64,000 bases of DNA from Clostridia bacterium (GTDB lineage Bacteria; Bacillota; Clostridia; Christensenellales; CAG-138): assembly GCA_017435905.1 (NCBI GenBank), contig JAFSEB010000075.1, positions 4,452-68,451 on the forward strand, written 5' to 3'. Numbering within the stretch: position 1 is the first letter of the stretch; the number at the start of each line of letters is the position of its first letter. The notes beneath the pieces are model-generated. The model had not been told where the DNA came from. It saw only the letters and a program-made list of their open reading frames with translations, and ran no database searches. The position numbers and the translations under genes are program-made. Of the stretch, positions 7,887 to 48,571 are shown piece by piece.

Positions 7887-9206
7887 ATGCGTGCGGTAGA
7901 TATGATCCTGAAAAAGAAGCGCGGCGAGGCGATGTCGCAGCCTGAGATCGAGGCGCTGATAAACGGCTTTGTCAAAGGTGATGTACCGGATTACCAGATG
8001 GCAGCATGGATGATGGCTGTCTGCTTTCAGGGAATGAACGGAGAGGAAACAGCCGCTTTGACCGATGTGATGGTAAAAAGCGGTGAAACTGCGGACCTTT
8101 CCACACTTTCGGGCATCAAGGTGGATAAGCACTCTACCGGCGGTGTGGGCGACACTACCACCCTTGTGATCGCACCGCTTGTGGCTGCATGCGGCGGTAC
8201 TGTTGCAAAGATGTCCGGCCGTGGGCTGGGGCATACCGGCGGCACGCTCGATAAGCTTGAATCCGTGCCCGGTGTCAGCATTGAACTGACCATGGAACAG
8301 TTCCTTTCCATCGTGCGGGATACGGGGCTTTGTGTCATGGGGCAGACGGCGGATCTTGTTCCGGCGGATAAGCTGATGTATGCCCTCCGGGATGTAACGG
8401 GCACCGTCAGCAGCATTCCTCTGATCGCATCAAGCGTGATGAGCAAGAAGATCGCATCCGGTGCGGATGCCATCGTGCTCGATGTAAAAACGGGATCGGG
8501 CGCATTTATGCAGACTCTGCCGGAAGCCCGTGCACTTGCAAAGACCATGGTGGATATCGGCAGCCGAATGGGAAGGAAGACTGTGGCTGTGATCACCGAT
8601 ATGAACCAGCCCCTCGGCATGGCTGTCGGAAACGGGCTGGAAGTAAAAGAGGCGATCGAGCTCCTTTCGGGAAAACTCCCGAAAACCGATCCGCTTTATG
8701 AAGTATCCATGCTGCTGGCATCTCATATGCTGGTGCTTTCAGAACTTGCTTCGGATGAAAAAGAAGCAAAAGCAAAGCTTGCGGCAGCGCTTGAAAGCGG
8801 CGCAGGCCTTCGGAAACTCAAAGCGATGCTGGCGGCTCTCGGCGGAGATACATCCTGTATCGATGATCCCGAAAGTCTTTGTGCCGTCAGGGAAAAACGG
8901 GATGTTTACCTTGATGAAGAAGGATACATTGCCGCAATGCAGGCTGAAAAGATCGGCGTAGCCGCACAGCTCCTTGGTGCCGGGCGTGCCACAAAGGCTG
9001 ATTCCATCGATCCTGCGGTGGGGCTTGTGATGCACAAACGGCAGGGGATGCAGGTCTCCAAGGCGGAGCCGGTGGCAGCGCTTTACATTAACGATGCGAC
9101 CCATGTTGAAGATGCGATCGCAGCTTTGAAAGCCGCCATCACCGTTTCGGCCGAACAGCCGAATGCTGCGCCGATGGTGTATGATGTCATCACGGCAGCG
9201 GAATAA
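7887..9206 (+). CDS. pdp: Pyrimidine-nucleoside (thymidine) phosphorylase
   Basis: MRAVDMILKKKRG...DYQMAAWMMAVCFQGM...DKHSTGGVGD...SGRGLGHTGGTLDKLES. The ORF track opens at 7857, but the M at 7887 fits the family N-terminus. Confidence 0.9.
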   Translation: MRAVDMILKKKRGEAMSQPEIEALINGFVKGDVPDYQMAAWMMAVCFQGMNGEETAALTDVMVKSGETADLSTLSGIKVDKHSTGGVGDTTTLVIAPLVAACGGTVAKMSGRGLGHTGGTLDKLESVPGVSIELTMEQFLSIVRDTGLCVMGQTADLVPADKLMYALRDVTGTVSSIPLIASSVMSKKIASGADAIVLDVKTGSGAFMQTLPEARALAKTMVDIGSRMGRKTVAVITDMNQPLGMAVGNGLEVKEAIELLSGKLPKTDPLYEVSMLLASHMLVLSELASDEKEAKAKLAAALESGAGLRKLKAMLAALGGDTSCIDDPESLCAVREKRDVYLDEEGYIAAMQAEKIGVAAQLLGAGRATKADSIDPAVGLVMHKRQGMQVSKAEPVAALYINDATHVEDAIAALKAAITVSAEQPNAAPMVYDVITAAE

Positions 9207-9280
9207 AGTTTACGGACTGTTGATTTGAACAGTAAACCACTTTGGTGTATGCTCAAACAGAAAAAAGCGAGGGAACGTTT

Positions 9281-33527: not shown

Positions 33528-36158
33528 TTATTTCTTTGCGCTCTTGCGCTGAATGAACTTCACAAGCTCCACAACGGGGATCACAAGTACCGCAAGGATC
33601 ATTGCGACCGCATACTCAACGAAGCTGATGTGCTCGAAACCGAAGGCATCTGAAATGCCGGGAAGGTAGATGACAGCGGTGGTCAGCAGCAGGCTCAGAC
33701 CCATAGCGCCCCAAAGGACCATGTTGTGGGACTTCAGGCTGAAGATGCTGCCACGCTGGCTCCTCAGGTTGAAGCTGTGGAAGATCTCCGCCATGCTCAT
33801 GGTGAGGAACGCCATGGTCATACCGTCGGCGCTTTCTGCAATTTCCCAAACACCGGATTCAATGTAGTGGCCGATGAAGTAAGCGGCAAGGGTCAGCACG
33901 GTGACCATAACGCCCTGATAGGCAACATCAAAGCCAAGACCGCCGGAGAAGATGCCGTCCTTGGTGCTGCGGGGCTTGCGCTGCATGAGGTCGGGCTCAC
34001 CCTTTTCCATGCCGAGGGCAAGGGCGGGGAAGCAGTCGGTGATCAGGTTGATCCAAAGAAGGTGTACGGGCTTCAGAATGACAAAGCCGAGCAGCGTTGC
34101 GAAGAAGACGCTGAGCACCTCGCTCATGTTGGAACCGAGCAGGAACTGGATGGCCTTGCGGATGTTGTCATAGATCCTGCGGCCTTCGCCGACAGCGCCA
34201 ACGATGGTGGCAAAGTTATCATCGGAAAGGACCATGTCCGCAACGTTCTTGGTAACGTCGGTGCCGGTGATGCCCATACCAACGCCGATATCGGCGCTCT
34301 TGATGCTGGGAGCATCGTTGACGCCGTCACCGGTCATAGCGGTGATGCAGCCCTGTTCACGCCATGCGTTGACAATACGCACTTTGTGTTCAGGCTGTAC
34401 ACGGGCGTAGACGCTGTACTTGGTAATGTTGGCGTTGAGTTCTTCCTCGCTCATGGCGGAAAGGTCGCTGCCGGTAAGCGCCTGACTTTCATCCTCAAGA
34501 ATGCCAAGCTCCTTGGCAATGGCAACGGCGGTATCCTTATGGTCGCCCGTGATCATAATGGGGCGGATACCGGCGGTGCGGCATTCTGCAATGGCGTCCT
34601 TTACTTCGGGACGGATGGGATCGATCATACCCGCAAGGCCAAGGAAGGTAAGTTCGTTTTCGATGGCTTCGGGGGAAATGTCGGAAGGCAGGGAAGTATA
34701 CCTGCGCTCGGCGGCACAAAGCACACGGAGAGCTCTGTCGGCCATGCTCTTGTTCGCAGCAAGGATCGCATGGCGCATCGCATCGGTCATGGGGTGGACG
34801 TCGCCATCCTTTTTGTAAGCGGAGCAGCGCTTGAGCACTTCGTCGGGAGCACCCTTGGTGTACTGAACAAAACCGTTTTCCGTTTTGTGCACCGTGCTCA
34901 TCATTTTGCGCATGCTGTCAAAGGGCGCCTCTTCCACACGGGGGGTGGCAGCCTCAAGAGCGGACTTATGGAGGGAAAGACGGGTCGCCCAGTTAACAAG
35001 GGCACACTCGGTGGGTTCGCCGACCGCATCGCCGTTTTCATCGGGCGCAGCATCGGAACAAAGCGCCATGCCGATGGCAGTGGCTTCTTCTTCACCGTAG
35101 TAGTCCACAACGGTCATCTTGTTCTGGGTAAGGGTACCGGTCTTGTCGCTGCAGATGACCTGTGCACAGCCGAGGGTCTCAACGGCGGTAAGCCTGCGGA
35201 TGACGGCGTTGCGCTTGGACATATTCGTTACACCGATGGAAAGCACGATGGTAACGACTGTGGCAAGACCTTCGGGAATGGCAGCAACAGCAAGGCTGAC
35301 GGCGACCATGAAGGTGCTGATGATCACATCAAGGTGGAAGTCGCCTTCCTTCAGCAGGCTGAAAGCGAAGATGAAAATGCAGATACCGAGCACGATAAAG
35401 CTCAGGACCCTGCTCAGCTGGCCAAGCTTGATCTGAAGCGGCGTTTCACCGTCTTCGGCGGCTGCAAGGGCATCAGCGATCTTGCCCATTTCGGTCTCCA
35501 TGCCGGTGGCGGTAATGACTGCACGGCCACGACCGTAAACGATGGTGCTGCCCATGTAGACCATGTTTCGGCGGTCGCCGAGGGGAACGTCATTGTTCTC
35601 CTTCATCATAAGCGCCTGCACGGCCTTTTCTACGGGAACGCTTTCACCGGTGAGGGCAGCCTCTTCCGCCTTCAGGCTTGCGGATTCAATGATGCGTGCA
35701 TCGGCAGGAACGGCATCGCCTGCCTCAAGGATGATGATGTCGCCGGGCACAAGGGCTTCGCTCTTGACGGTGATCTGCTTTCCGTCACGAAGCACTTTAC
35801 TTGTTGCGGCGGTCATTGCCTGCAGCGCTTCGATGGCTTTTTCAGCCTTGCTTTCCTGATAAACGCCAAGAACAGCGTTGATGAGCACAACGATCAGAAT
35901 GATGAAAACATCCGCAAAGCTTTCGTTGCTGTAGGCGGCGGTGATGCCGGATACGGCAGCAGCTACGAGGAGGATGATGATCATCGGGTCTTTCAGCTGG
36001 TCAAGGAAACGCTCAAAAAGGGTTGCTTTTTTCGCTTCCTTCAGCTTGTTGGGACCGTGTTTGGCAAGACGGGCTTCCGCCTCTTTTGCGCTCAGGCCGG
36101 AAGCTTCTGCATTCAGGCCAGCAAGAACTTCCGTGGGTTCCGCACAGTAATACTTCAA
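33528..36158 (-). CDS. PII-type cation-transporting P-type ATPase (Ca2+/Mn2+ class)
   Basis: DKTGTLT phosphorylation site (ICSDKTGTLTQNKM), TGES, MITGDHKDTA and TGDGVNDAPS. TTG start with an AAAGGAAGG RBS. Confidence 0.9.
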   Translation of the reverse strand: MKYYCAEPTEVLAGLNAEASGLSAKEAEARLAKHGPNKLKEAKKATLFERFLDQLKDPMIIILLVAAAVSGITAAYSNESFADVFIILIVVLINAVLGVYQESKAEKAIEALQAMTAATSKVLRDGKQITVKSEALVPGDIIILEAGDAVPADARIIESASLKAEEAALTGESVPVEKAVQALMMKENNDVPLGDRRNMVYMGSTIVYGRGRAVITATGMETEMGKIADALAAAEDGETPLQIKLGQLSRVLSFIVLGICIFIFAFSLLKEGDFHLDVIISTFMVAVSLAVAAIPEGLATVVTIVLSIGVTNMSKRNAVIRRLTAVETLGCAQVICSDKTGTLTQNKMTVVDYYGEEEATAIGMALCSDAAPDENGDAVGEPTECALVNWATRLSLHKSALEAATPRVEEAPFDSMRKMMSTVHKTENGFVQYTKGAPDEVLKRCSAYKKDGDVHPMTDAMRHAILAANKSMADRALRVLCAAERRYTSLPSDISPEAIENELTFLGLAGMIDPIRPEVKDAIAECRTAGIRPIMITGDHKDTAVAIAKELGILEDESQALTGSDLSAMSEEELNANITKYSVYARVQPEHKVRIVNAWREQGCITAMTGDGVNDAPSIKSADIGVGMGITGTDVTKNVADMVLSDDNFATIVGAVGEGRRIYDNIRKAIQFLLGSNMSEVLSVFFATLLGFVILKPVHLLWINLITDCFPALALGMEKGEPDLMQRKPRSTKDGIFSGGLGFDVAYQGVMVTVLTLAAYFIGHYIESGVWEIAESADGMTMAFLTMSMAEIFHSFNLRSQRGSIFSLKSHNMVLWGAMGLSLLLTTAVIYLPGISDAFGFEHISFVEYAVAMILAVLVIPVVELVKFIQRKSAKK

Positions 36159-36232
36159 ATTGGGTGCCTTCCTTTCATGATGGTTTTAGGGTGCAGAATA
36201 CAACTGTCAATAATATCCCACAGGGAGAAACA

Positions 36233-36355
36233 AAAAACTCATGTGCAGGGGTAAGTCTGCACATGAGTCTCGTTTTTTCATTTAAGCCAGGCATTGCTGC
36301 CACGATGTTGGACTTAAACCATGCGGTGCATGGTAACTACTCCCCCATGAGATAT
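36233..36355 (-). promoter_or_regulatory. yybP-ykoY (Mn2+) riboswitch aptamer (36262-36355) with terminator expression platform (36233-36267)
   Basis: The minus-strand RNA reads CAUGGGGGAGUAG-[ACCAUGC-ACC-GCAUGGU]-UUUAAG...ACAU...[GGCA-GCAA-UGCC]...CUUAAA...ACGAGACUCAUG. This carries the conserved GGGGAGUAG and GAGAC elements. It is followed by CUCAUGUGCAG-ACUUACCC-CUGCACAUGAG-UUUUUU. Confidence 0.8.
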
Positions 36356-36520: not shown

Positions 36521-38470
36521 ATGGATAACTCTGCGCTTTTTGCAGGAACACGGTCTGCAGCGGTGCGGAATAGAGGTTTCATGAAGCTTCTGAAGAAGAT
36601 CAGGCTGCGATTACTGCCGAATATCGATCTCGTAAAAGCATCGCGCATTGCTATGCTTGTTATTTGCGATATTGCACTTATTAATGCTGCCTCCTTTCTT
36701 GCGCTTTGGATCCGATTTGAGTTCAGCGTGCAGGATATGCTCCAAAGCGGCTTCCTGCCGAGTATCATTGCAAATGCGCTGCCGTATACTGCCGCAGCGG
36801 TCGCAGTCATCGCAGCAATGCGCCTTTATGTCAGCCTTTGGGAGTATGCAGGGTTTGATGAATTCGTGCGCATTTGTATCGCCTGCATCCTGATCGATTC
36901 CGTAGGATACCTTGGACTGATCGTCCGCTCATTACCGATCCCCCGCAGCTATCCCGTGCTGAACGGGATGTTTCTCGTTCTGTTTATTGCAGGCCTTCGC
37001 TTTTCCTATCGCTTTATTCGAAAAGAATTGCGGAGCCGTGCAAATAAAGGCAAACGTACCATGCTGATCGGTGCCGGCGAAGCAGCATTTATGGCGCTCA
37101 GAGAATTCTCTTCCAGCCGCTATTCCCAAAATGACGTTATTTGCCTGATCGATGACGACGTCAACAAGCAGGGAAGATATCTCTGCGGAGTCAGGATCGT
37201 GGGCGGCGAAGAATATATTGAAGAAGCGGTGCGCAAATTTAGGATCGATGAGATCATATTTGCCATTCCATCCGCATCGCCGCAGCGAAAAAAGGAACTT
37301 CTCTCCACATGCCAAAGGACGGGCTGCAAGCTCAAAACGCTGCCGGGTCTTTTCCAGCTTGCAAACGGTGAGGTGACAATCCAGCAGATCCGTAATGTAG
37401 AGATCGAAGACCTGCTTGGACGTGATGTGGTGGATGTCGATATCAGCGGCATCATGGATTATGTACATGACAGAGTTGTTCTTGTGACGGGCGGCGGCGG
37501 CAGCATCGGCAGTGAGCTTTGCAGGCAGCTTGCCGCACATATGCCAAAGCAGCTCATTGTGCTCGATATTTATGAGAATAACGCCTATGCCATTGAACAG
37601 GAGCTGAAAGCGGATCATCCCGACCTCAGTATCCATGTGCTCATTGGATCTGTCAGAGATGAAAAACGCCTGGCAGATGTGTTTTCACGGTTCCGGCCGG
37701 AACTCGTTTTTCACGCTGCAGCGCATAAACATGTGCCGCTCATGGAAGCAAGCCCCCTCGAGGCGATCAAAAACAATGTTTTCGGCACGTTGAATGTTGC
37801 AAACTGCGCTGACAGGTTCGGCGCTAAACGCATGCTGCTTATCGGCACCGATAAGGCAGTACGACCCACCAATATCATGGGCGCAACAAAACGCATCTGC
37901 GAGATGATCGTGCAGATGATGAACGGCAGCTCCCAAACGGAATATGTGGCGGTTCGCTTCGGAAATGTGCTTGGGTCAAACGGATCGGTGATCCCTCTTT
38001 TTAAAAAGCAGATAGAAGCCGGAGGCCCCGTCACCGTTACCCATAAGGATATCATACGGTATTTTATGACGATTCGGGAGGCAGTAGCGCTTGTTCTGCA
38101 GGCAGGTGCTTATGCAAAAGGCGGAGAGATATTCGTCCTTGATATGGGCGATCCTGTCCGCATCGATGATCTGGCAAGAAACATGATCAAGCTGAGCGGC
38201 TTTGAACCGGATGTGGATATTCCGATCCGCTACATTGGGTTAAGACCGGGCGAAAAGCTCTTTGAAGAGCTGCTGCTTGCGGAAAAAGGAATGAAACGAA
38301 CCCCGAATGAGCTGATCTATATCGGGCAGCCGCTGCATTTTGATGATGAGACTCTCCGAAAGGAACTGGCAGACCTAAAACAGCTTTGCAATAACAGCGG
38401 AGAAGAAGCAGCAGTTTACGAAGCTGTAAAACGGATCGTTCCCGAATACAGTCCCTCAAAAACAAGATAA
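36521..38470 (+). CDS. Membrane-bound polysaccharide biosynthesis protein CapD/PglF-type (nucleotide-sugar 4,6-dehydratase)
   Basis: 4 N-terminal TM helices, a first Rossmann region (MLIGAGEAA) and an SDR domain (VLVTGGGGSIGSEL...FHAAAHKHVPLME...TDKAVRPTNIMGATKR). An alternative start at ATG 36581 is favoured by a TTGACA-N17/18-TTTAAT promoter at 36478-36507. Confidence 0.85.
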   Translation: MDNSALFAGTRSAAVRNRGFMKLLKKIRLRLLPNIDLVKASRIAMLVICDIALINAASFLALWIRFEFSVQDMLQSGFLPSIIANALPYTAAAVAVIAAMRLYVSLWEYAGFDEFVRICIACILIDSVGYLGLIVRSLPIPRSYPVLNGMFLVLFIAGLRFSYRFIRKELRSRANKGKRTMLIGAGEAAFMALREFSSSRYSQNDVICLIDDDVNKQGRYLCGVRIVGGEEYIEEAVRKFRIDEIIFAIPSASPQRKKELLSTCQRTGCKLKTLPGLFQLANGEVTIQQIRNVEIEDLLGRDVVDVDISGIMDYVHDRVVLVTGGGGSIGSELCRQLAAHMPKQLIVLDIYENNAYAIEQELKADHPDLSIHVLIGSVRDEKRLADVFSRFRPELVFHAAAHKHVPLMEASPLEAIKNNVFGTLNVANCADRFGAKRMLLIGTDKAVRPTNIMGATKRICEMIVQMMNGSSQTEYVAVRFGNVLGSNGSVIPLFKKQIEAGGPVTVTHKDIIRYFMTIREAVALVLQAGAYAKGGEIFVLDMGDPVRIDDLARNMIKLSGFEPDVDIPIRYIGLRPGEKLFEELLLAEKGMKRTPNELIYIGQPLHFDDETLRKELADLKQLCNNSGEEAAVYEAVKRIVPEYSPSKTR

Positions 38471-39472
38471 ATGCACACAGGAAAACAAAACATGACAGAA
38501 TATGCAGCTATGCCGGTTTTTCCGGAACACACACACTTTCTTGTCACGGGCGGTGCGGGCTTTATCGGCTCCAATATTTGCGAGAGCCTGCTCAAAATGG
38601 GGTACCGCGTCCGCTGTCTTGACGATCTTTCAACGGGAAAAACGGAAAACCTTGAGAGTTTTTCGGGCTGTGACAGGTTTGAGTTTATAAAGGGTGACAT
38701 CCGTGATTTTGATACCTGTATGCGTGCTGCAGAAGGGGTGGATTATGTGCTGCACCATGCAGCGTAGGGCAGCGTACCGAGAAGCATCGAATTGCCGCTC
38801 ATATATGATCTGATCAATGTACACGGCACTGTCAACATGATGGAAGCTGCGCTCCGTGCCGGAGTGAAACGGTTCGTTTATGCATCAAGTTCCGCCGTTT
38901 ACGGCGATGATGAGACCCTTCCAAAGGTGGAGGAGAAGGTGGGCAGGCTGCTTTCTCCCTATGCGCTCAGTAAATATGCGGATGAACTTTATGCGCAGCA
39001 GTATCATATGCACTATGGGCTTGCAACAGTCGGGCTTCGGTATTTCAATGTATACGGAAAACGGCAGAATCCCGAGGGCGCATATGCCGCCGTGATCCCG
39101 AAATTTTTGAAAATGATGCTGTCGGGTGAACGGCCGATCATATTTGGTGACGGTACACAGACCCGTGATTTCGTGTATGTCGATGATGTGGTACAGGCAA
39201 ATCTCAGAGCTTGTCTTGCACCGAACGATGCGAACGGGGAAGCTTTCAACATTGCCTTTGGCGGGAAGCTGGAGCTTAATGCCATGCTTGCTGCACTTGA
39301 GAAAGCGCTTGGCATTGAAGTTGAACCTGTTTATTTGGAGGAACGGGCAGGGGATATCAAGCATAGCAGTGCAGATATTTCCAAAGCAAAGCGTGTGCTG
39401 CGGTTTGCTCCCCGGTGGGATTTTGAAAAAGGGATCGCCGAGGCGATCGAATGGTACAGGAAGAACCTTTGA
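38471..39472 (+). pseudogene. NAD-dependent nucleotide-sugar 4-epimerase (WbpP/TviC-like) interrupted by one in-frame TAG (38765-38767)
   Basis: ORFs 38471-38767 and 38792-39472 are in the same frame. The joined product reads VTGGAGFIGSN...VLHHAA*GSVPRSIELP...YASSSAVYG...YALSKY. The family normally has AALGSVPRS at this point, so TTG>TAG is plausible. Confidence 0.75.
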
Positions 39473-40697
39473 AGACGGCAATGACAGCGGCAGAAAAACA
39501 GCTCATCTCGCTGATGCGGGCCTATATGCACCATAGTATACCTGAGGATCATATGCTTCGGTCCGATCAGGCGCTTTGGGTGCGGCTGTTCGAGTTAGCG
39601 GAAAGCCACAAGCTGACGCCGGCAGCTTTTGACCGGCTGTCTGTGCTGCCTGATATTGGGGAGAGGATGCCGTCTTTCCTGTACGAAAAATGGAAACAGC
39701 GTGCCCGTGCGCTTACCGTGAAGCAAACCAGATTTGATGCGGAACTTGCTTCGATTCTTGATATGCTTGATAAAAACGGGATCTGCTATGCGCTTGTGAA
39801 AAGTGCGTTCTGCAGAACGTTGTATCAAAACGGCGCTCTGCGCATTTCCTCGGATGAGGATATCATTGCGGCGGAACGGGATTTTCCCCGTGCATGTACG
39901 CTGTTTACGCAATTGGGTTTCACGACGGCAGATGTGCCCGATAAAGCAGATGTGGTCCATTTCCGAAAGCCGAATGGGTTCTATATTGAACTCCATAAAA
40001 CGCATTCGGCGATGATGTTGCCCTGAACGGTTTGTTTGAAGAGGCACTTTCCTCACGCATAAAATGGAATTTAGGCTTTAGCTGCGGCTATACTTTTTCA
40101 CCGACAGAAAACTTTCTTATGCTGGTGCTGCATGCCAAAAAGCATTTTATCGCCGGCGGCTTCGGCCTGCGTACGCTTGCGGATATTGCGAAGTTTGCCA
40201 TTCTTCACGGAAAAGCCGTGGATTGGGAGAAAGCGGAAGCTGTTCTGAAAGAAAACAAAGCTTTCCGTTTTGTTCAGGCTTTGTTTTCTCTTGCGGAAGC
40301 CTTTCTTGGGTTTTCCCATCTTGATGCAGGCTGTCCGGAATGGTTTGTGGGAAAAGAAAACGAAGAGGCACTTTTTTCCGACATTCTTGATGCAGGTATT
40401 TACGGGAAGAGCAGTATGAGCCGCATTCACAGCGCCAATATGACGGCAGCCGCAAGCAAAAAGGGAAAGAAAACAGGTGTAGCGGCAGCACTTTTCCCGA
40501 ATGCAGAGGTCGTGAAGCGCCGCTACCGCTATTTGGATCGCTATCCTGTGCTGCTCCCGTTTGCTTATGTGCAGCGCATGTTCGGCTATGCATATGAAGT
40601 TGCCGCAGGCGAGTTCAAAAACAACAGCCCCGATAAAAGCATCCGTATTGCAGAACAACGCATGAAGCTGCTTCAAAAGTATGGAATGATCGAATAA
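39451..40697 (+). pseudogene. Uncharacterised nucleotidyltransferase family (NTP_transf_5-like) gene split by a 1-nt frameshift near 39997-40000
   Basis: ORF 39451-40026 ends ...FYIELHKTHSAMMLP*. The frame of ORF 40032-40697 is open from 39999 (NAFGDDVALNGLFEEAL...). Adding one A to the A4 run would restore ...IELHKNAFGDD.... The second ORF has no RBS. Confidence 0.6.
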
Positions 40698-40706
40698 AGG
40701 AGAGCC

Positions 40707-41786
40707 ATGGACCAAAACGCAAAAAAGAAAAAGAAACTTCCCGTATGGGTCACGGTCGTGCTGTGTATTCTTCTGGCGGTATGCGTATTTGCAGCGGCAG
40801 TTCTTCTTTTTGTAAACGGAAAACTGAACAGGATCAGCGAGATCGATCAGCCGGACGCTACTCCCGTTCCGACGGACGGCATGGAGGAAGAAGAAATATT
40901 TGAACAGGAAGAACCCGCCGGCGAGCTTGCTGAAACCGAACTTGAAGAGCTGCTTCCCGAGGATGTGCAGTGGGCGGAACCCTCTCAAGCACCGGAGGAG
41001 GAAATAATACCGGCCGATGATCCCGGCAGCGCTGTCACCAATGTCCTTTTGATCGGGCAGGACAGAAGGCCGGACGAAAACGGCCGTACCCGTTCTGATG
41101 CCATGATCATCGTCAGTATGAACCGCAATACGGGAAAAGTAACTCTTGTTTCCGTGATGCGTGATACATATGTGCAGATCGAAGGGTATCAGGATAACCG
41201 CATCAACACCGCTTATCGCTTTGGCGGCGCAAAGCTTCTTTGCGATACCATAGAAAAGAACTTCAGTGTTCATATCGATGGCACTGTCGGTGTCCATTTC
41301 AGCGGATTTATCGATGTGATCGATGCGGTGGGCGGCGTGGATATCGAAGTAACGGCTGAAGAAGCCGGTTATATGAACCTGACGCAGGAGGGCATCCGTG
41401 TCGGAATGAACACACTAAGCGGCGAAGAAGCCCTGTGTTATTCGAGGCTGCGCCATCTTGAAGGCGGCGACAGAATGCGTACATGGCGTCAGCGCAATGT
41501 GATCATGTCATTGATCGAACGGTTCAAGGGTTGCAGCGTCGGCGAATTGAATGCATTGATCGATACCGTTCTGCCCTATGTATCCACGGATCTATCCAAC
41601 ATTGAGATCATGGAGTGCGCATTGACGGCGCTGAAAATGGATCTTGGCGACATTCGCTCTCACTCCATTCCGATCGCAGGGGCATACAAGGCTGCCCGTA
41701 TCCGCGGTATGGCTGTTTATGTGCCGGATCTTGATAAAACACAGGAAGCGCTCAGGGATCTTCTTAACGGAGATGCCGTATCATAA
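40707..41786 (+). CDS. LytR-CpsA-Psr (LCP) family glycopolymer transferase
   Basis: An N-terminal TM segment and an acidic linker, then LLIGQDRR...RSDAMIIVSMN...VSVMRDTYV...RINTAYRFGG. Confidence 0.9.
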   Translation: MDQNAKKKKKLPVWVTVVLCILLAVCVFAAAVLLFVNGKLNRISEIDQPDATPVPTDGMEEEEIFEQEEPAGELAETELEELLPEDVQWAEPSQAPEEEIIPADDPGSAVTNVLLIGQDRRPDENGRTRSDAMIIVSMNRNTGKVTLVSVMRDTYVQIEGYQDNRINTAYRFGGAKLLCDTIEKNFSVHIDGTVGVHFSGFIDVIDAVGGVDIEVTAEEAGYMNLTQEGIRVGMNTLSGEEALCYSRLRHLEGGDRMRTWRQRNVIMSLIERFKGCSVGELNALIDTVLPYVSTDLSNIEIMECALTALKMDLGDIRSHSIPIAGAYKAARIRGMAVYVPDLDKTQEALRDLLNGDAVS

Positions 41787-41802
41787 AACAGGCAAGAAGG
41801 AA

Positions 41803-42258
41803 ATGCCAATGAAGCAGATGCAGACAGACTCACTTTACGAGACATGCCGTGCACAGATCGGTGCAGGGGAGTCTGTTTGGCTGCGCATTACCGGAAACAG
41901 TATGGCGCCGTTTTTGGTTGATTCACGCAATTCCGTTTGTCTTGCGGCGATCAAAACACCTGTACGGAGAGGCGATATCATCCTTTACAGACGTGAAAAC
42001 GGCTCTTTGGTCCTGCATCGGGTATATGCGGTGAAAAAAGAAGGTCTGTTCTTCGTTGGAGACGGTCAGCGAAAAACGGAAGGCCCTGTTCGGGAGGACG
42101 CCCTGGTTGCCCGTGCGGTTTCGGCAAAGCGAAAGGGAATAGAGATAGGGCAGAAAGACCTTCTTTGGCTGCTGTTTCGTACCGTTTGGTTGCGGGTGCT
42201 GCCTTTGCGCAAAACGATCCTTGCCGCATACAGGCTGCTGCGGCGAAAGAAAGCTTGA
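41803..42258 (+). CDS. S24/S26-like serine peptidase domain protein with a C-terminal hydrophobic/basic tail
   Basis: ITGNSMAPFL (the nucleophile Ser context of signal-peptidase/LexA-like folds) and RGDIILYR...LVLHRV. Start at 41803 after GAAGGA; the ORF track opens at 41644 inside the LCP gene. Confidence 0.6.
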   Translation: MPMKQMQTDSLYETCRAQIGAGESVWLRITGNSMAPFLVDSRNSVCLAAIKTPVRRGDIILYRRENGSLVLHRVYAVKKEGLFFVGDGQRKTEGPVREDALVARAVSAKRKGIEIGQKDLLWLLFRTVWLRVLPLRKTILAAYRLLRRKKA

Positions 42259-42276: not shown

Positions 42277-42999
42277 ATGATCGATGTTCATGCACATATT
42301 TTGCCCGGATATGATGACGGTGCGCAGCAGATGTCCGATGCGCTGATTATGGCGGAAATGGCAGCGGACAGCGGCGTTACAGGTATTGCGGCAACACCGC
42401 ATGTGCTCGATGACAGGATCCCGGATCCGGCGGCGCTCCACGCTGCGTTTGCTGCACTGCGATTTGCGCTCGATGACTGTGCGATCCCGGTTGAACTGTA
42501 TTCGGGAATGGAGATCATGGCAACGGAGAAAACGCCATCTCTTCTTGCTGCAGGTAAGCTCCTTACGCTGAACGGTTCCCGTTATCCGCTTTTGGAGTTT
42601 GGTTTTTCAGAGACGGCAGCGCATATGGAAAAGATCCTGTATGCCGTGCAGGCGGAGGGCTTTATTCCGATACTTGCTCACCCGGAGCGGTACTATTCGC
42701 TGCAGGATATGCCGCAAAGGGCAATGCGTATGGCGGAAAATGGCATCCTGCTGCAGCTTGATAAGGACAGTATCCTTGGCAAAATGGAGAAAAACGCCGT
42801 TCGGTGCGCACATATGCTTTTGTCCGAAAGGTGTGTTCATGCCGTTGCAAGTGATGCGCACCGACCGAATTACCGCACCACACGCTTGAACCGTGCACAG
42901 GAATATACGGCGCTTCATTATTCTTTTGAAGCGGCATACCTGCTTTTTGAAGAAAACCCGTATTCGATCGTACACGATCTTCCCGTGAAAAGCCTGTAA
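42277..42999 (+). CDS. cpsB: CpsB/YwqE-type PHP-domain protein-tyrosine phosphatase
   Basis: MIDVHAHILPGYDDGA...ATPH...LAHPERY...ASDAH metal-binding motifs. Confidence 0.9.
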   Translation: MIDVHAHILPGYDDGAQQMSDALIMAEMAADSGVTGIAATPHVLDDRIPDPAALHAAFAALRFALDDCAIPVELYSGMEIMATEKTPSLLAAGKLLTLNGSRYPLLEFGFSETAAHMEKILYAVQAEGFIPILAHPERYYSLQDMPQRAMRMAENGILLQLDKDSILGKMEKNAVRCAHMLLSERCVHAVASDAHRPNYRTTRLNRAQEYTALHYSFEAAYLLFEENPYSIVHDLPVKSL

Positions 43000-43037: not shown

Positions 43038-43934
43038 ATGGAAAGAAAGAAACTCAGGATCATTGGTTGTGCCGTCTTGCTTCTTGCAATAGGAGCTGCC
43101 GGTGCATATCATTTTTTGGTGGAACGGGCAGCCGACCGTGTTGCGCCGGTGATCGAAGTTCCTGCCGATACCTTTTCGATCACAATGGATACGCCCGTTT
43201 CATCGCTTCTTTCCGGCGTTACTGCTTTTGATGACAGAGACGGCGATCTGACAAACCGGATCTTTATTGAAAAGATTTCAAAATTCGTTGCACCGGGAAA
43301 GAGTCATATTACCTTTGCTGCCGTGGATGCAAGCGGCAATGTGGGGAAAAAACAGTGCACCGTGATCTGGTCGGACTATGTTAGCCCGCAGTTTGATCTT
43401 AAGCAGCCGCTTCGTTTCTCATCTGCGGAGCGCATCAATGTTTTAGATCGCATCACTGCTGTTGATCGGCTTGACGGCGACATTTCAAACCATGTGAAAA
43501 TGACTCTTCTTAGCGGTACGCTTGCAGGGGTGGGGAATGCGGAGGCTGAAGTTCGTGTCACGAACAGCATGGGCGATACTGTATCCCTTGCGGTGAATGT
43601 GGAGATATTTGAAGCATCGGATCTTAATGCGATCTATGCTCCCGAGATCATGTTGAACAAATATATCCTGTATCTATCCGAAACGGAGCCCTTTATTCCC
43701 GAAACCATAGTGGAGGGGATTAAAGTGCGCTATGTGGGAACGCAGGCTGCTGCACTGGGGATCACGGAGGAGGATACTGTTGTCATGCCGGAGCAGTACG
43801 GAAAAAACCGCATTCGCATCACCTGCGAAACGGATCTTTCTGCTGTCGGTGTGCATGAAGTAAGATACACAACATCGCTTGACGGATACAGCGGCGGTAC
43901 GACTCTTTATGTGGTGAGGGGAGGAGACGCGTGA
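43038..43934 (+). CDS. Membrane-anchored hypothetical protein with Ig-like (DUF5011-type) repeats
   Basis: An N-terminal TM segment and two ...A.DDRDGDLTNRI... / ...AVDRLDGDISNHV... motifs, typical of bacterial Ig-like surface domains. Confidence 0.5.
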   Translation: MERKKLRIIGCAVLLLAIGAAGAYHFLVERAADRVAPVIEVPADTFSITMDTPVSSLLSGVTAFDDRDGDLTNRIFIEKISKFVAPGKSHITFAAVDASGNVGKKQCTVIWSDYVSPQFDLKQPLRFSSAERINVLDRITAVDRLDGDISNHVKMTLLSGTLAGVGNAEAEVRVTNSMGDTVSLAVNVEIFEASDLNAIYAPEIMLNKYILYLSETEPFIPETIVEGIKVRYVGTQAAALGITEEDTVVMPEQYGKNRIRITCETDLSAVGVHEVRYTTSLDGYSGGTTLYVVRGGDA

Positions 43935-45481
43935 ATATTCGGGAACAGAATGAGGCTCCTGCCGCAATGATGATAGATTGGGGCTGCATTATCAGAGCTG
44001 TTTTGAAACGCTGGGAGGTGATCGTGCTTGCAGCGATCATCAGTGCTGTCGGCGCTTATATCCTTGCAGGCGAACTGTATTCCCCCCGTTATTCGGCTAC
44101 GACCACCTATGTGGTTTCCGAACGGAGCGAATCCGTCAATGTTTACAGCAGTCTTGATGCTGCTTCCGACCTTGCGGAAGCTTTTACCGATATTTTGAAC
44201 AGCAATATCCTGAAGGAAAAGGTTTCGCTGCAAACAGGTCTTTCCATGGATAATGTGAAGATCCGGGCATCGCTGATCAGCGATACGAATCTTCTTGATC
44301 TCAAAGTGACTGCGGACAGACCTGAAGACGCTTTTTTCATTCTTGAAGCGCTGATTGAGCATCATGACATTGTGACATCCAAGGTCATGGGAAATGCCGT
44401 TCTTCAAACGCTGAAAGCGCCTACCGTGCCCACCGTTCCTGATAATGTCAGAAACAATAAAGGTATTGCGGTCAAAGCCGGCATTGCGGCGGCTGTTGCT
44501 GCAGTGGTAACCCTTGGTATCATCTGTTATCTTTCCGATACGGTGAAAAACGCAGAACAGGCAGCAGAGCTGATCGATGCGAAGCTTCTTTCCGTCATTC
44601 ATCATGAAAACAGCCGTGTGCGCATTGGAAAAGGAGGGCTTTCGGTCAAACGCCGGCTGCTGATACATCTTCCTTCCTGCGGCTTCCATTTTTCGGAGAC
44701 CTTCAAAAATCTTCGCGCCCGTGTGGAACACCGCATGGCGGAGGATCAAGGAAAAATACTGCTGATCGCAAGCGCTGCAAAGGGCGAGGGAAGAACAACT
44801 GTTGCTTCAAACCTTGCTGTGGCATTTGCACAGAAAAACAAACGTGTTGTGCTGATCGATTGTAATACCGCCGCCCCGGCTATTGCTTCTCTTTTCTCTA
44901 TCACACGGGAAAAAGATATGATGCTGAAGCGCTTTTCCTATTCTATCGGCACCAATACCGATTATTCGGTGCTTCGCAATGAGGATACAAGGCTCTATAT
45001 CGTAACAACGGTACGGATGAACGGAGCTGCCGAATTCTTCCTTGGCGCTTCCATGAAGCGAATGCTTGAGATCCTCTCTACAAAATTCGATTACATTATT
45101 TTGGATTCTCCCTGTTTTGATGAGGGGATAGAGGGGGAATGTCTTGCCCGCCTTGCATCCCATACGCTTCTTGTGGTACGGCAGGATGATCAGAAAGCAA
45201 AGCGCATCAACGATATGATCGATACCGTTTCCGCTGCCGGCAGCAAAGTGATCGGATTTGTGTTCAACGACGTGAAAGCATCGTTTGTTCCCGGAAATGA
45301 CGGGAAAAACGATGTATACGGGTATGGATACGGCGGATACGCCGGCTATGGCGGCAAATACGGTTCCCGCTACGGCAAATACAGTAATTACGGAAACTAC
45401 CGTTACGGAAAATACGAATATGGCCGCTACGGCTATCACAAACAGCAGGGTCAGGAGATCGACCCGGATACGTTGGACTAA
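43931..45481 (+). CDS. Fused Wzz chain-length-regulator / BY-kinase-like protein with degenerate catalytic motifs and a long Tyr cluster
   Basis: GTG start after GAGGGGAGGAG, and 2 TM segments flanking a Wzz-like loop. The P-loop region reads LLIASAAKGEGRTTVASNLAVAF, with R where the Walker A K belongs. Walker A' is LIDCNTAAP (no DxD) and Walker B is IILDSP. The C-terminus has 15 Tyr in about 40 aa. Confidence 0.8.
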   Translation: MNIREQNEAPAAMMIDWGCIIRAVLKRWEVIVLAAIISAVGAYILAGELYSPRYSATTTYVVSERSESVNVYSSLDAASDLAEAFTDILNSNILKEKVSLQTGLSMDNVKIRASLISDTNLLDLKVTADRPEDAFFILEALIEHHDIVTSKVMGNAVLQTLKAPTVPTVPDNVRNNKGIAVKAGIAAAVAAVVTLGIICYLSDTVKNAEQAAELIDAKLLSVIHHENSRVRIGKGGLSVKRRLLIHLPSCGFHFSETFKNLRARVEHRMAEDQGKILLIASAAKGEGRTTVASNLAVAFAQKNKRVVLIDCNTAAPAIASLFSITREKDMMLKRFSYSIGTNTDYSVLRNEDTRLYIVTTVRMNGAAEFFLGASMKRMLEILSTKFDYIILDSPCFDEGIEGECLARLASHTLLVVRQDDQKAKRINDMIDTVSAAGSKVIGFVFNDVKASFVPGNDGKNDVYGYGYGGYAGYGGKYGSRYGKYSNYGNYRYGKYEYGRYGYHKQQGQEIDPDTLD

Positions 45482-45495
45482 GGAGGGCAGAATCG

Positions 45496-46833
45496 ATGGA
45501 AGAACAGATTCGCGAAACAAAAACTCTGCCCGAAATCACATTCTTTTTTGAGGATTTCCTGAAGTACCTGAAAAGGCTGTTTTATGTTCCAGTTATCCTT
45601 GCGCTTGCTGCGAGCATTGTCCTTTGCGGCTATTCCTACCTGCGCTACCACCCGATGTATGAGGCGTATGCAACGTTTGCCGTTCAGCTGAACGGACAGT
45701 ACGGCGCAGCATCCTCCTACTACAGCAAAGCCACGGCAGAACAGCTGGAAAAGACGTTTCCCGCCATACTGAACAGCGGGATCCTGAATGATACCGTTGC
45801 AAACGACCTTGGGGTGGACAAGCTGCCGGCTTCGATCCATGCAAGCGCAGGCAATGCAGCGCTATTTACCATCCGCTGTACCGCAGCCGATCCCGGGGAT
45901 GCATATGATGTGCTGATGGCAACGATCAAAAACTATCCCTCCGTTGCGCAGTATGTGGTGGGTGATACAAGTTTGCTGCTTGTTGATGAATCCGGCATAC
46001 CGGAAGAACCGTATAATTCCGTTGCCTTTATCGGTTCTGTCAAAAAAGGATGTGTGATCGGCATTGTGCTTTCTGCAGCGCTGATCGCACTTCTTGCTGC
46101 GACACGTAAAACGGTACGCAGCGTAGAGGATATCCGCCGCATTCTCAATATTCGCTGCATTGCGTCTCTTCCACAGATCCGCATCAAACGCCGCAGTGAC
46201 TCTTCCGGGGAAAATCATATCATCGCATTCCGGCATAATGTCTCACGCAGCTACACCGATGCGGTACGGCTGATGGGCGTCCGTGCGGAGGCTTTCCTCA
46301 AAAAAGAAGGGGGCAAGGTGCTTATGGTGACAAGTGCTGTGCCGGGAGAAGGCAAAACAAGCGTTTCATCGGGACTTGCACTTGCTTTTTCCAAACAGGG
46401 GAAGAGAGTTGCTTTGATCGATTGCGACCTTCGCAATCCTTCCGTGCTGCCTCGTTTCAAAAAAGATGTTGGCGAACAAAGCGGGATATTTGAGTATTTG
46501 TGCGGACAGGTAAAACTGCCGGAAATCTTTCTGCCCCTGGAGCCAAACCTTTGCGTGGTGCATGCAGGCAAGCCGGTACAAAATGCATCGGAAGTTCTCG
46601 ATTCGGCTGCTGTGCGCAGGCTGATCGAATATGCCGGAGAGCAATTTGATGTGGTGATTCTTGATACGCCGCCCAGTTATTTGCTTTCCGATGCACTTTC
46701 CGTCGCAAAGGTCGCAGATTCGGTGCTGTTTGTCATCAAACGAAACTATGCGCGCACCCATGCCGTAACGGAGGCTGTGGACCGCATTGCTGAAACGAAA
46801 CTGCCTTTTCTCGGGTGCGTATTGAACGGCTGA
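45496..46833 (+). CDS. Fused Wzz / BY-kinase (polysaccharide tyrosine autokinase) with intact motifs but no C-terminal Tyr cluster
   Basis: Walker A SAVPGEGKTS, Walker A' LIDCDLRNP, Walker B VVILDTPP. It ends ...LPFLGCVLNG without a tyrosine. Confidence 0.85.
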   Translation: MEEQIRETKTLPEITFFFEDFLKYLKRLFYVPVILALAASIVLCGYSYLRYHPMYEAYATFAVQLNGQYGAASSYYSKATAEQLEKTFPAILNSGILNDTVANDLGVDKLPASIHASAGNAALFTIRCTAADPGDAYDVLMATIKNYPSVAQYVVGDTSLLLVDESGIPEEPYNSVAFIGSVKKGCVIGIVLSAALIALLAATRKTVRSVEDIRRILNIRCIASLPQIRIKRRSDSSGENHIIAFRHNVSRSYTDAVRLMGVRAEAFLKKEGGKVLMVTSAVPGEGKTSVSSGLALAFSKQGKRVALIDCDLRNPSVLPRFKKDVGEQSGIFEYLCGQVKLPEIFLPLEPNLCVVHAGKPVQNASEVLDSAAVRRLIEYAGEQFDVVILDTPPSYLLSDALSVAKVADSVLFVIKRNYARTHAVTEAVDRIAETKLPFLGCVLNG

Positions 46834-46861: not shown

Positions 46862-48571
46862 TTGATCGGAACGTTCAAAAAACTGAATCAAAAAATGCGA
46901 GACGGATCTATCCGGGAAATGATCGCCGAATTTCGCTGGCTGCTTCGCTATGCCTTGCGGTATAAAGGCACGATTCTCGTTCAACTCTTTTTTTCTGTTG
47001 CCGGCGTTCTCTTTGGTCTTTGCAGCAGCATAGCATCCAAAACGCTGATCAATTCCGTGATCAAAACGGAGCTTTCTCCTGCACTGTATGCAGGTGCTGC
47101 CATGGTGCTGCTTTCGCTCTTAAGCATCGGCATGCGAATGCTTTCCGGCCGCATCAGCGCAAAAGCAGGCGTGACGATCAGAAATGCGCTTGAAACGACG
47201 GTATTCGGAAAAATACTGAAAGCCAAATGGGAATCCTTGCAGGTATACAGAAGCGGCGATCTTCTGAACCGCCTTCACAGCGACACACGAACAGTCGTTA
47301 ACTGCATTATCGCTCTTTTTCCCGGGATGATCAGTGCCTCTTTTCAGTTTATCGGTGCATTGGTGATCGTACTGTATTTTGATGCCGCCATGGCGCTTAT
47401 TGCGCTGATCGGCATTCCCATCAGTGTATTGCTTTCCCGTACGCTTCTTCTGAAGCTGAGAAGCTATCAGGATAAGATCAGAAAAATGGACAGTGAGCTG
47501 ATGTCATTTGAAGAAGAGGCGTTCCACAATGTGGATCTGGTCAAAAGTCTCGGTATTATTGGGCTGTTTGAAAGAAAACTGTCCGGAATGCAGGCAAGCT
47601 ATCGGGAAACATATCTTTCCCATAACCGGCTCAGCGTTTCCGTTTCCGGCACCATGTCCTGTCTGGGCCTTCTTGTCAGCGGCGGCTGCTTTTGCTACGG
47701 CGCATACAGACTTTGGTCCGGTGCCATTGACTTTGGGACGATGACCTTGTTCCTGCAGCTTGCCACATCTCTTTCGGGCGCATTTTCCCTATTAACGGGG
47801 TACATTCCTCAGCTGATCGGTACTGCAACGGCGGTAGGGCGCATCATGGCTGTGACTGAGCTTCCTGCAGAAAATGAAGCTTGTCCGCAAATCGATCCGG
47901 AAAAAGGATTGCACATTCATCTTTCCGATGTATCGTTTGCCTATGAAACAGGTACGCCTGTCTTGGAATCGGTGTGTTTTGATGCATCTGCCGGTATGAC
48001 GGTGGGCCTTGTCGGTACTTCGGGTGAGGGAAAGACCACGTTCCTGCGGCTGCTTCTCGGATTGCTTGACTATTCCGGCAATGCTGTGATTTTCGATTGC
48101 AGCGGAAAGGAAGCAGCTGTTTCTGCTGCCACACGCAGCTTTGTTTCCTATGTGCCGCAGGATAACATTATGTTTGCCGGTACCGTTGCAGAGAACATGC
48201 GTATGGTGAAAGAATCTGCAACCGATGAAGAGATCATTGAAGCATTGAAGACAGCCTGCGCTTACGACGAGATCATCAGCCGATTGCCCGATGGGATCAA
48301 CAGCAAGATAGGTGAGAAGGGAAAAGGCTTTTCGGAAGGGCAGATACAGCGGTTTTCCATTGCCCGTGCTCTTTTGAAAGATGCGCCCATCTTGCTTCTT
48401 GATGAAGCAACGAGTGCCCTTGATATGGAAACAGAGCAGCAGGTGATCAAAAACCTGATCCGGCAGAACAGCAGGCGTATCTGCATCGTTTCAACTCACC
48501 GTACCGGTGCTCTTTCGCTGTGCGATGCCGTTTACCGGGTGGATGACACACAACTTACCTTAGAAAACTGA
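46862..48571 (+). CDS. ABC exporter, fused permease/ATPase (MsbA-like type I exporter)
   Basis: 6 TM helices at the N-terminus, Walker A GTSGEGKTT, signature FSEGQIQR and Walker B ILLLDEATSALD. TTG start; an alternative ATG lies at 46895. Confidence 0.85.
   Translation: MIGTFKKLNQKMRDGSIREMIAEFRWLLRYALRYKGTILVQLFFSVAGVLFGLCSSIASKTLINSVIKTELSPALYAGAAMVLLSLLSIGMRMLSGRISAKAGVTIRNALETTVFGKILKAKWESLQVYRSGDLLNRLHSDTRTVVNCIIALFPGMISASFQFIGALVIVLYFDAAMALIALIGIPISVLLSRTLLLKLRSYQDKIRKMDSELMSFEEEAFHNVDLVKSLGIIGLFERKLSGMQASYRETYLSHNRLSVSVSGTMSCLGLLVSGGCFCYGAYRLWSGAIDFGTMTLFLQLATSLSGAFSLLTGYIPQLIGTATAVGRIMAVTELPAENEACPQIDPEKGLHIHLSDVSFAYETGTPVLESVCFDASAGMTVGLVGTSGEGKTTFLRLLLGLLDYSGNAVIFDCSGKEAAVSAATRSFVSYVPQDNIMFAGTVAENMRMVKESATDEEIIEALKTACAYDEIISRLPDGINSKIGEKGKGFSEGQIQRFSIARALLKDAPILLLDEATSALDMETEQQVIKNLIRQNSRRICIVSTHRTGALSLCDAVYRVDDTQLTLEN

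Follow-up and report, generated by a model that had tools for sequence, protein, structure and literature searches.

We analyzed a 64,000-nucleotide stretch of DNA from a Clostridia bacterium (GenBank assembly GCA_017435905.1, contig JAFSEB010000075.1, positions 4,452 to 68,451 of the forward strand), which we refer to as the window. An earlier sequence-only reading of the window had drawn attention to two adjacent genes, each encoding a Wzz-like domain with two transmembrane (TM) segments fused to a P-loop domain resembling that of the bacterial tyrosine kinases (BY-kinases), and had described the two proteins as having complementary defects, with a degenerate catalytic site and a tyrosine-rich tail in the first and canonical catalytic motifs and no tail in the second. 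We call the upstream protein K1 and the downstream protein K2. Both have the architecture of a fused polysaccharide co-polymerase (PCP) and kinase, and the genes and their diagnostic motifs are arranged as follows.

43931–45481, + strand: K1, 516 amino acids; fused PCP (Wzz-like, two TM segments) and BY-kinase-like domain, a predicted pseudokinase with a predicted Tyr-rich acceptor tail
44771–44800, + strand: Walker A of K1, SAAKGEGRTT (from S281); the AGA codon of Arg288 is at 44792–44794
44846–44878, + strand: Walker A' of K1, VVLIDCNTAAP (residues 306–316), located by alignment
45089–45115, + strand: Walker B of K1, DYIILDSPC; the Asp is present and PP is changed to PC
45314–45436, + strand: Tyr cluster of K1, 15 Tyr (Y463–Y502) in YG-rich repeats with scattered Lys/Arg
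45496–46833, + strand: K2, 445 amino acids; fused PCP (two TM segments) and canonical BY-kinase domain without a Tyr tail
46333–46362, + strand: Walker A of K2, SAVPGEGKTS, canonical, aligned to the P-loops of CapB, VpsO, and Etk
46408–46440, + strand: Walker A' of K2, VALIDCDLRNP, canonical DxDxR
46648–46674, + strand: Walker B of K2, DVVILDTPP, canonical
46810–46833, + strand: C terminus of K2, LGCVLNG and stop, aligned with GAILNG, the strand that closes the Etk core

The K1 gene begins with a GTG codon at 43931 that is preceded by a GGAGGAG Shine-Dalgarno sequence and overlaps the end of the upstream gene, which encodes an immunoglobulin-like (Ig-like) protein, by 4 nucleotides. Database entries for this gene differ in length (492, 504, or 516 amino acids), and the GTG at 43931 is the start with the best Shine-Dalgarno sequence. 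K1 matches Pfam Wzz (E = 4.6e-8) together with MinD/ParA-type P-loop families, and its relatives in the PDB include CapA1/CapB1 (E = 3e-14), VpsO, Etk, and Wzc. Its score against the NCBIfam model for polysaccharide biosynthesis tyrosine autokinases (TIGR01007) is 91 bits, under the cut-off of 108, and the NCBI label for the protein (MBQ7114460.1) is merely "AAA family ATPase." In the HMMER alignment, Arg288 lies exactly under the P-loop Lys of CapB and VpsO, which bears out the original reading of GEGRT as a Walker A motif whose invariant Lys has become Arg. That reading also held that the DxD of Walker A' was lost. The motif is indeed altered, but the loss is not complete: D310 remains, Asn312 (codon AAT, 44864–44866) occupies the position of the second Asp, and Ala314 that of the Arg, so that DxDxR has become DxNxA. 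The Walker B Asp is present, as are the P-loop glycines and Thr. The tail contains the 15 Tyr that had been counted in it, and K1 therefore has the C-terminal Tyr cluster that is typical of BY-kinases. Compared with pseudokinases of the EcpK/HfsB type, K1 shares the loss of catalytic Walker residues and differs in having retained a Tyr tail.

The K2 gene has the sequence AAGGAGG 8 nucleotides ahead of its ATG. K2 scores 115.9 bits against TIGR01007, over the cut-off, and NCBI labels it (MBQ7114461.1) "polysaccharide biosynthesis tyrosine autokinase." It matches VpsO (E = 4e-24) and Etk (E = 4e-21) and the MinD/ParA-type P-loop families of Pfam, with no match to Pfam Wzz; the structural relatives of both K1 and K2 also include BceF. 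These alignments and the TIGR01007 score confirm what had been described for K2, namely canonical Walker A, A', and B motifs and an LGCVLNG terminus without a Tyr cluster. The protein has 0 residues beyond the kinase core, and approximately 100 of 120 K2 homologues have 4–15 Tyr past the point at which it stops. A concealed tail in another reading frame was considered and excluded, as the gap between the stop codon and the next gene is 28 nucleotides. By its sequence, K2 is a clear BY-kinase homologue that falls short of the classical signature solely because the Tyr cluster is missing. K1 departs from that signature at Walker A and Walker A', and K1 and K2 taken together contain all of it.

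The two genes are co-directional and 14 nucleotides apart, and the proteins align over 452 residues with 24% identity (E = 2e-34), an alignment that covers the whole N-terminal half of K2. Each has two hydrophobic segments, at residues ~28–47 and ~180–203 (with hydropathy peaks at ~29 and ~183 in K1 and at ~28 and ~185 in K2). The description of the pair as two adjacent genes that each encode a two-TM Wzz-like domain and a BY-kinase-like domain is thus upheld: they are full-length paralogues with matches in Pfam, NCBIfam, and the PDB. A recent local duplication was excluded as the origin of the pair, given the 24% identity and the existence of two ancient clades, which are described below. Both proteins have the PCP-2a arrangement, in which two TM helices flank a Wzz-like domain that is N-terminal to a fused kinase. 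The extracellular loop is only ~130 residues long, which is the size of CpsC/CapA, and neither protein has a large coiled-coil periplasmic domain, in a bacterium of Gram-positive type; no gene for an outer membrane polysaccharide export protein (OPX, Wza) is present among the annotated open reading frames (ORFs) of the window, the annotation of which does not extend to 54–64 kb. The ring-interface motif ExxRxxR, examined as a possible discriminator, was not informative: it takes the form ExxKxxR in the K1 family and ExxRxxR in the K2 family. In the window it is ETFKNLR in K1 and DAVRLMG, in which the second Arg is absent, in K2.

A sequencing artifact or a strain variant can be excluded as the source of these sequence states, although strain-specific variation had been raised as a possible explanation of the K-to-R and DxD changes when they were first noted. 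Identical K1 and K2 sequences are present in several independent assemblies. Within the 20-member cluster of K1 sequences at 90% identity, GEGRT and DCNT are found in 14 of the 14 members that were read, and every full-length member of the K2 cluster ends in LGCVLNG. A second species (locus L001; surveyed and comparison loci are designated by L numbers) is fully syntenic with the window; its K1 is 81% and its K2 80–81% identical to their counterparts in the window, the lesions of its K1 are those seen there, and its K2 likewise has no tail. CpsB (the product of a phosphatase gene upstream of the pair), K1, K2, and an ABC exporter each correspond to one intact ORF across the aligned length in this comparison; for the Ig-like protein, the comparison spanned the 290 residues that are common to it and to the shorter gene call in L001. 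Pairwise ratios of nonsynonymous to synonymous substitution (dN/dS) between the window and L001, at a dS of ~1.2, are 0.09 for K1 (0.088 for the kinase-like domain and 0.047 for the tail), 0.10 for K2, and 0.095 for CpsB. K1 and K2 are under purifying selection, and the low ratios indicate that the degenerate kinase domain of K1 is being maintained rather than decaying.

We then surveyed the module across Clostridia using an alignment of the Ig-like protein as the marker, because this marker is neutral with respect to kinase motifs. The survey comprised one genome per species and recovered 80 loci (L009–L088) from Oscillospiraceae, Lachnospiraceae, Ruminococcus, Christensenellaceae, Anaerovoracaceae, and other groups. 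Each BY-kinase-like ORF was scored with a hidden Markov model, and its Walker residues and the number of Tyr beyond the kinase core were recorded. A tandem K1/K2 pair was present in 73 of the 80 loci, and in 80 of 89 among all of the sources examined; most of the sources without a pair are contig ends. The Ig-like gene is always immediately upstream of K1, and the order CpsB, Ig-like, K1, K2 is repeated in distant genomes, as seen in the contexts of both K1 and K2 homologues. In a rough neighbor-joining tree, the K1 and K2 proteins form two separate clades with corresponding sub-clades, which indicates that they arose by an ancient duplication and have been inherited as a unit. In the majority of pairs both paralogues are canonical (Walker A Lys, DxDxR, and Walker B Asp) and both are Tyr-tailed. 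Judged from the tree and the motifs, the tandem pair is of ancient origin and in most cases comprises two complete kinases; the complementary defects are a derived condition that has arisen repeatedly.

Many K1 proteins, in the sub-clades of L010–L019, L028, L040, L042, L073, and L086, are canonical except at the Arg of Walker A', where they have Cys, Lys, Ser, Tyr, Ile, or Leu; the partner K2 keeps its Arg. K1 may have been a weaker or more specialized kinase already before any tail was lost.

After removal of redundant loci, 75 pairs were available for comparing the state of the K1 site with that of the K2 tail. We scored K1 as dead if the Walker A Lys or a Walker A' Asp was lost, and a protein as tail-less if it had no more than 2 Tyr beyond the core. 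When K1 was dead, K2 was tail-less in 11 pairs and tailed in 0. When K1 was intact, K2 was tail-less in 3 pairs and tailed in 61. The association is strong by Fisher's test (p = 7e-11 for the 75 pairs, a statistic that ignores phylogeny). The dead sites and the missing tails therefore occur in the same pairs and on opposite partners: no paralogue is clearly both dead and tail-less, although that combination would arise most readily if the two proteins acted independently, and only the K2 of L005, which has NxD in Walker A', is ambiguous. The relationship also occurs in mirror image. The K2 of L085 has Ser in place of the Walker A Lys, DxN in Walker A', and 16 Tyr, and its K1 is canonical with 2 Tyr; the K2 of L083 has DxN and 18 Tyr, and its K1 has 4 Tyr. 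These mirror cases, the 11-to-0 count, and the co-conservation of K1 lesions and a tail-less K2 in L001 strongly support the suggestion, made from the single locus, that site and tail may be divided between cooperating paralogues. A survey for co-conservation had been proposed along with it, and its outcome is that 11 of 11 dead K1 proteins are found beside a tail-less K2.

The number of tyrosines available to a pair did not change when one tail was lost. Canonical pairs have 9.4 + 9.4 = 18.9 Tyr (standard deviation 5.0), and split pairs have 17.0 + 0. The K1 tail is richer in Tyr in the split state than in the canonical state (p = 2e-6), and the sum for the pair is unchanged (p = 0.24).

The split state is found in four sub-clades. 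The first contains the window, L001, and L005 and is sister to the canonical L025 and L011. The second is a Ruminococcus clade in which Walker A' of K1 is obliterated, with Lys to Arg added in only some of its members. The third is the L007 clade, and the fourth is the mirrored L085 and L083. We also made a prospective test with four tail-less K2 proteins from the homologue list, none of which was in the survey. All four (4/4) have an upstream K1 with a lesion in Walker A or A' and 12–20 Tyr. The lesions are as follows.

L089: ExDxG in Walker A' of K1
L090: Lys to Arg in Walker A of K1
L091: DxN in Walker A' of K1, with the Lys intact
L092: Lys to Arg in Walker A of K1

L090, L091, and L092 belong to the L007 clade. 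A tail-less K2 is common to all members of that clade, and the lesions in K1 vary (Thr in place of the Lys in L007, Arg in its place in L090 and L092, and DxN in L091). This combination of a shared K2 tail loss with varied K1 lesions, together with the intermediate states in L034, L088, and L005, indicates that tail loss came first and that the site of the partner decayed later. As reconstructed from present-day sequences, the order of events is that one tail is lost and the other grows, after which the site of the paralogue with the grown tail decays. Two of the lesions recur: Lys to Arg has arisen at least 4 times, and the change of the second Asp to Asn at least 4 times, the latter being seen independently of the window in the K1 of L091 and the K2 proteins of L083 and L085. 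Both are conservative changes that need a single transition. Their recurrence is compatible with retention of nucleotide binding, and it may merely reflect mutational accessibility.

In the window, K1 and K2 lie within a string of genes on the + strand whose order is CapD-like, epimerase, NTP_transf_5, LytR-CpsA-Psr (LCP), S24-like ORF, CpsB, Ig-like, K1, K2, ABC exporter, and DUF4364. The annotated members that flank the pair are the following.

36521–38470, + strand: CapD-like membrane-bound UDP-sugar 4,6-dehydratase (Polysacc_synt_2, PF02719, E = 5.6e-118)
38513–39472: NAD-dependent epimerase gene with an in-frame TAG at 38765–38767
39451–40026 and 40032–40697: NTP_transf_5 (PF14907) gene, frameshifted into two ORFs; a single 404-amino-acid gene in L001
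40707–41786, + strand: LCP glycopolymer ligase (PF03816, E = 8.5e-37)
41644–42258: small ORF with a GNSMAPF motif and a weak, below-cut-off match to Peptidase_S24 (E = 2e-4)
42277–42999, + strand: CpsB/CapC-type PHP phosphotyrosine phosphatase (PF19567, E = 2.8e-55)
43038–43934, + strand: Ig-like protein with one N-terminal TM segment (peak at residue 8) (PF16403, E = 1e-6)
46862–48571, + strand: ABC exporter with transmembrane and nucleotide-binding domains (Pfam ABC_membrane and ABC_tran), directly downstream of K2

A bidirectional terminator at 36237–36268 precedes the string, in which the CapD-like gene comes first. Between 36.3 and 49 kb we found no convincing + strand terminator, and a scan for promoters and terminators gave no reliable internal signals. 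CpsB matches its family profile at full length: it covers residues 1–232 of the 234-position PF19567 profile and starts with MIDVHAHILPG, which contains the HxH metal motif. A CpsB homologue is kept in 63 of the 67 long module loci, and on this basis we argue that the tail is still phosphorylated; CpsB is presumed to act as the eraser for the K1 tail. The Ig-like protein has no NCBIfam match. Homologues of the S24-like small ORF are present in 31 of the 67 long loci and also adjoin K2 in L089, and this ORF may be an additional component of the module. ABC exporters adjoin the module in L001, L007/L008, L089, L091, and L092 as well. The TAG in the epimerase gene replaces the conserved Trp of AAWGS in the L001 orthologue, and the gene is probably a pseudogene. 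The remaining annotated part of the window is the housekeeping chromosome of a sporulating member of the Clostridia (YqfD, PolA, MutS2, RuvABC, and topoisomerase IV).

Erosion of the module is evident in the lineages nearest to the window. In L002–L004 (K1 at 8001–9377), K2 is absent, the K1 tail is gone, and the ABC exporter is internally deleted. In Christensenella sp. UBA1685 (L009, 8600–12000), a frameshift interrupts K1, there is no K2, and CpsB and the ABC exporter survive as fragments.

The assembly of capsules and exopolysaccharides is believed to be controlled by BY-kinases that undergo rounds of trans-phosphorylation in homo-oligomeric rings. Because enzyme and substrate are the same polypeptide in these proteins, the roles of kinase, tail, and scaffold are hard to separate. 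Grangeasse and colleagues reportedly found in 2002 that Wzc without its Y-cluster phosphorylates K540M Wzc in trans. In the rings of Wzc and CapB, the tail of each protomer enters the active site of its neighbor, and a phosphatase resets the system (summarized in PMC12004946). A ring of the Wzc/CapB type is the mechanistic template that we use for K1 and K2.

Three arrangements of the two paralogues make different predictions about the coupling between site and tail. Were each paralogue to form a homo-ring of its own, a K2 that had lost its tail would have no use for its site, and the opposite is observed. If either site could phosphorylate either tail, a paralogue that is both dead and tail-less should be common, and this is not seen. 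Reciprocal cross-phosphorylation, with the K2 tail as the target of the K1 site and the K1 tail as the target of the K2 site, is favored because it predicts the pattern that we found. We consider it likely from the sequence evidence that K1 and K2 are subunits of one hetero-oligomeric PCP-2/BY-kinase machine that serves an envelope polysaccharide pathway of Gram-positive type. In the ancestral state, both paralogues would have been active and tailed, with each site acting on the partner's tail, and the ring geometry of Wzc and CapB would imply that the subunits alternate. In the lineage of the window, the K2 tail would have been lost, and the K1 site, its substrate gone, would have decayed (Lys288Arg and DxDxR to DxNxA); the Tyr content of the K1 tail would have approximately doubled. 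The system would now be one-way, with K2 as the sole enzyme and the K1 tail as the sole acceptor. The kinase-like domain of K1 would remain as a structural pseudokinase subunit of the ring, possibly still binding nucleotide, and the upstream CpsB phosphatase would reset the K1 tail. Cycles of phosphorylation of that tail would govern assembly of the oligomer, and hence synthesis or attachment of the polymer, as in canonical BY-kinase systems. We infer the physical hetero-oligomer, the alternation of its subunits, the transfer of phosphate from K2 to K1, and the role of CpsB from these sequence patterns.

Several observations weigh against this interpretation. The association between dead sites and lost tails was computed without regard to phylogeny, and the neighbor-joining tree supports ~4 independent losses of the K2 tail and 1–2 mirrored events. 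L034 and L088 have a tail-less K2 beside a canonical K1, and L005 has a tail-less K2 with NxD in Walker A' beside a K1 that is altered solely at the Walker A' Arg. K2 in the window retains five cytoplasmic Tyr (253, 334, 379, 395, and 418) that are possible internal acceptors, and K1 may have residual activity, as Arg for Lys and Asn for Asp are both conservative replacements. Two neighboring genes, for the epimerase and NTP_transf_5, are broken in the window; the closest relatives, L002–L004, are without K2, and L009 has lost the whole module. The module may thus be dispensable in part of the window's clade, despite the purifying selection on K1 and K2. Finally, no glycosyltransferase, Wzx, or Wzy is found among the annotated ORFs of the window (54–64 kb being outside the annotation).

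Among the other explanations, the one that survives best, although we judge it unlikely, is that K1 and K2 belong to two independent machines. K1 would be a phosphorylation-independent scaffold PCP like EcpK, HfsB, and GumC, with a YG-rich tail that serves some purpose other than phosphorylation. K2 would phosphorylate other proteins, for instance a priming glycosyltransferase or sugar dehydrogenases, and would not need a tail, and each of the two would form its own homo-oligomer. Each protein does have its own PCP domain, scaffold BY pseudokinases are documented (PMC12004946; GumC in PMC9800525), and CapB2 without its Y-cluster still phosphorylates CapO (PMC3795738). Independent machines predict no coupling of site and tail, yet coupling was seen in 11 of 11 cases and in the mirror cases. 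The Tyr tail is gone from the scaffold pseudokinases described so far but has doubled in K1, and the number of Tyr per pair has been conserved; the CpsB phosphatase has been kept; and a homo-ring of a tail-less kinase would have no switch for ring dissociation.

We regard it as very unlikely that K1 is still an active autokinase, with Arg standing in for Lys or another residue compensating, and that the locus simply encodes two kinases, one of them tail-less by chance. The conservative nature of the two substitutions, the intact P-loop glycines, Thr, and Walker B Asp, and the purifying selection on the kinase-like domain would all fit such a protein. However, three catalytic positions have changed together (the Lys in Walker A and, in Walker A', both the second Asp and the Arg), the score of K1 is below the NCBIfam autokinase cut-off, and the lesions elsewhere are drastic (obliteration of Walker A' in the Ruminococcus clade, Lys to Thr in L007, and Lys to Ser in L085). 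RecA K72R and similar mutants with Arg for the Walker A Lys are reported to hydrolyze nucleotide poorly although they bind it, which also counts against an active K1. The least probable explanation is neutral decay, in which this lineage is losing the module and the lesions in K1 and the shortening of K2 mark the onset of pseudogenization, with no bearing on function; the premature TAG in the epimerase, the NTP_transf_5 frameshift, the loss of K2 and the K1 tail in L002–L004, and the fragmented module of L009 are in keeping with it, but the K1 and K2 ORFs are intact relative to L001 with the low dN/dS reported above, the complementary state is stable throughout the Ruminococcus and L007 clades, and the K2 stop falls exactly on the domain boundary.

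The module resembles the CpsB/CpsC/CpsD system of S. pneumoniae and the CapA/CapB/CapC system of S. aureus in having a PHP phosphatase, a short two-TM PCP, a P-loop BY-kinase, a Tyr cluster, and an adjoining LCP ligase, and both K1 and K2 match CapB by sequence. It differs from them in that PCP and kinase form a single polypeptide (as in PCP-2a), two divergent paralogues stand in tandem, the apparent active site and the Tyr cluster are on different polypeptides, and the Ig-like membrane protein is a constant extra partner. With E. coli Wzc/Etk and V. cholerae VpsO, it shares the fusion of PCP and kinase and homologous kinase domains (E down to 4e-24). Unlike K1 and K2, Wzc is a homo-octamer with a site and a tail on every subunit and a large periplasmic domain that contacts Wza. 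We know of no heteromeric Wzc ring.

K1 is also comparable to EcpK (M. xanthus), HfsB (C. crescentus), and GumC (X. campestris), which have a BY-kinase fold that has lost its catalytic residues, is under selection, and acts with a PCP. In those proteins the Tyr tail has been lost as well, and they have been proposed to be phosphorylation-independent scaffolds (PMC12004946, PMC9800525). Unlike K1, they have no dedicated active-kinase paralogue alongside them; the tail of K1 is enlarged and a phosphatase gene is nearby. R. leguminosarum PssP and PssP2 form heterocomplexes in which PssP has Walker motifs but lacks a Y-cluster, and kinase motifs are missing from PssP2 (PMC4182512). PssP2, unlike K1, is also without a Tyr cluster and no acceptor has been identified; the genes are apart, and the proteins are proteobacterial with large periplasmic domains. 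In the duplicated BY-kinases CapB1/CapB2 of S. aureus and PtkA/PtkB of B. subtilis, one member appears to be inactive, and a pseudokinase-partner role has been hypothesized (PMC3795738). The motifs of CapB1 are intact, however, and it has its own tail, and in both cases the copies are in separate loci and have no complementary defects. A broad evolutionary survey of BY-kinases mentions duplications and does not mention a split of site and tail. The impression given by the sequence-only reading that the split arrangement was previously undescribed has held up: no published description of a pair consisting of a tail-bearing BY pseudokinase and a tail-less BY-kinase was found in the open-access full texts searched, which is not proof of absence. 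In its logic alone, the proposed arrangement would be analogous to ErbB2(HER2)/ErbB3(HER3), in which an active paralogue trans-phosphorylates the C-terminal tail of a membrane pseudokinase within an obligate heteromer; the fold and origin of those proteins are unrelated to those of K1 and K2.

We advance more tentatively, with something short of even confidence, the fuller proposal that Ig-like/K1/K2/CpsB represents an unrecognized heteromeric class of PCP-2/BY-kinase in Clostridia. Its subunits would strictly alternate and phosphorylate each other reciprocally, and it would have been made one-way repeatedly, as a writer and a pseudokinase-substrate, with the dead site acting as a nucleotide-bound structural lock, which is how the repeated, conservative changes of Lys to Arg and Asp to Asn would then be read, and the doubled, YG-rich tail as the sole timer of disassembly. 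If this is true, the repeatedly evolved one-way device would be a bacterial counterpart of HER2/HER3. A writer and an acceptor on different subunits would constitute a natural separation-of-function system. The loss of a tail followed by decay of the partner's site, with total Tyr conserved, is independent evidence from evolution for directional phosphorylation between neighboring subunits. PCP-kinase modules with two paralogues are present in hundreds of gut Clostridia and are not treated as a unit in current annotation.

Three further observations concern the module in other loci and the flank of the gene string. The K1 proteins of L007 (6054–7994), L008 (6045–7994), and L090 (2491–4797) have a low-complexity extension of 200–330 amino acids past the Tyr cluster, which in L007 and L008 is Ala/Pro/Lys-rich with an acidic end. 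Genes for Radical SAM, ScmC (PF27840), and PqqD proteins adjoin the module in the distant loci L006 (15923–17581), L007 (1–2496), and L008 (1–2486). A link between the module and a system for ribosomally synthesized and post-translationally modified peptides (RiPPs) is possible, and an ABC exporter is also nearby in many loci. Within the window, two ORFs of more than 840 amino acids overlap on opposite strands at 33528–36254. The + strand ORF has no Pfam match, and the arrangement in the syntenic L001 suggests that the true gene is the one on the - strand, which encodes a cation-transporting P-type ATPase.

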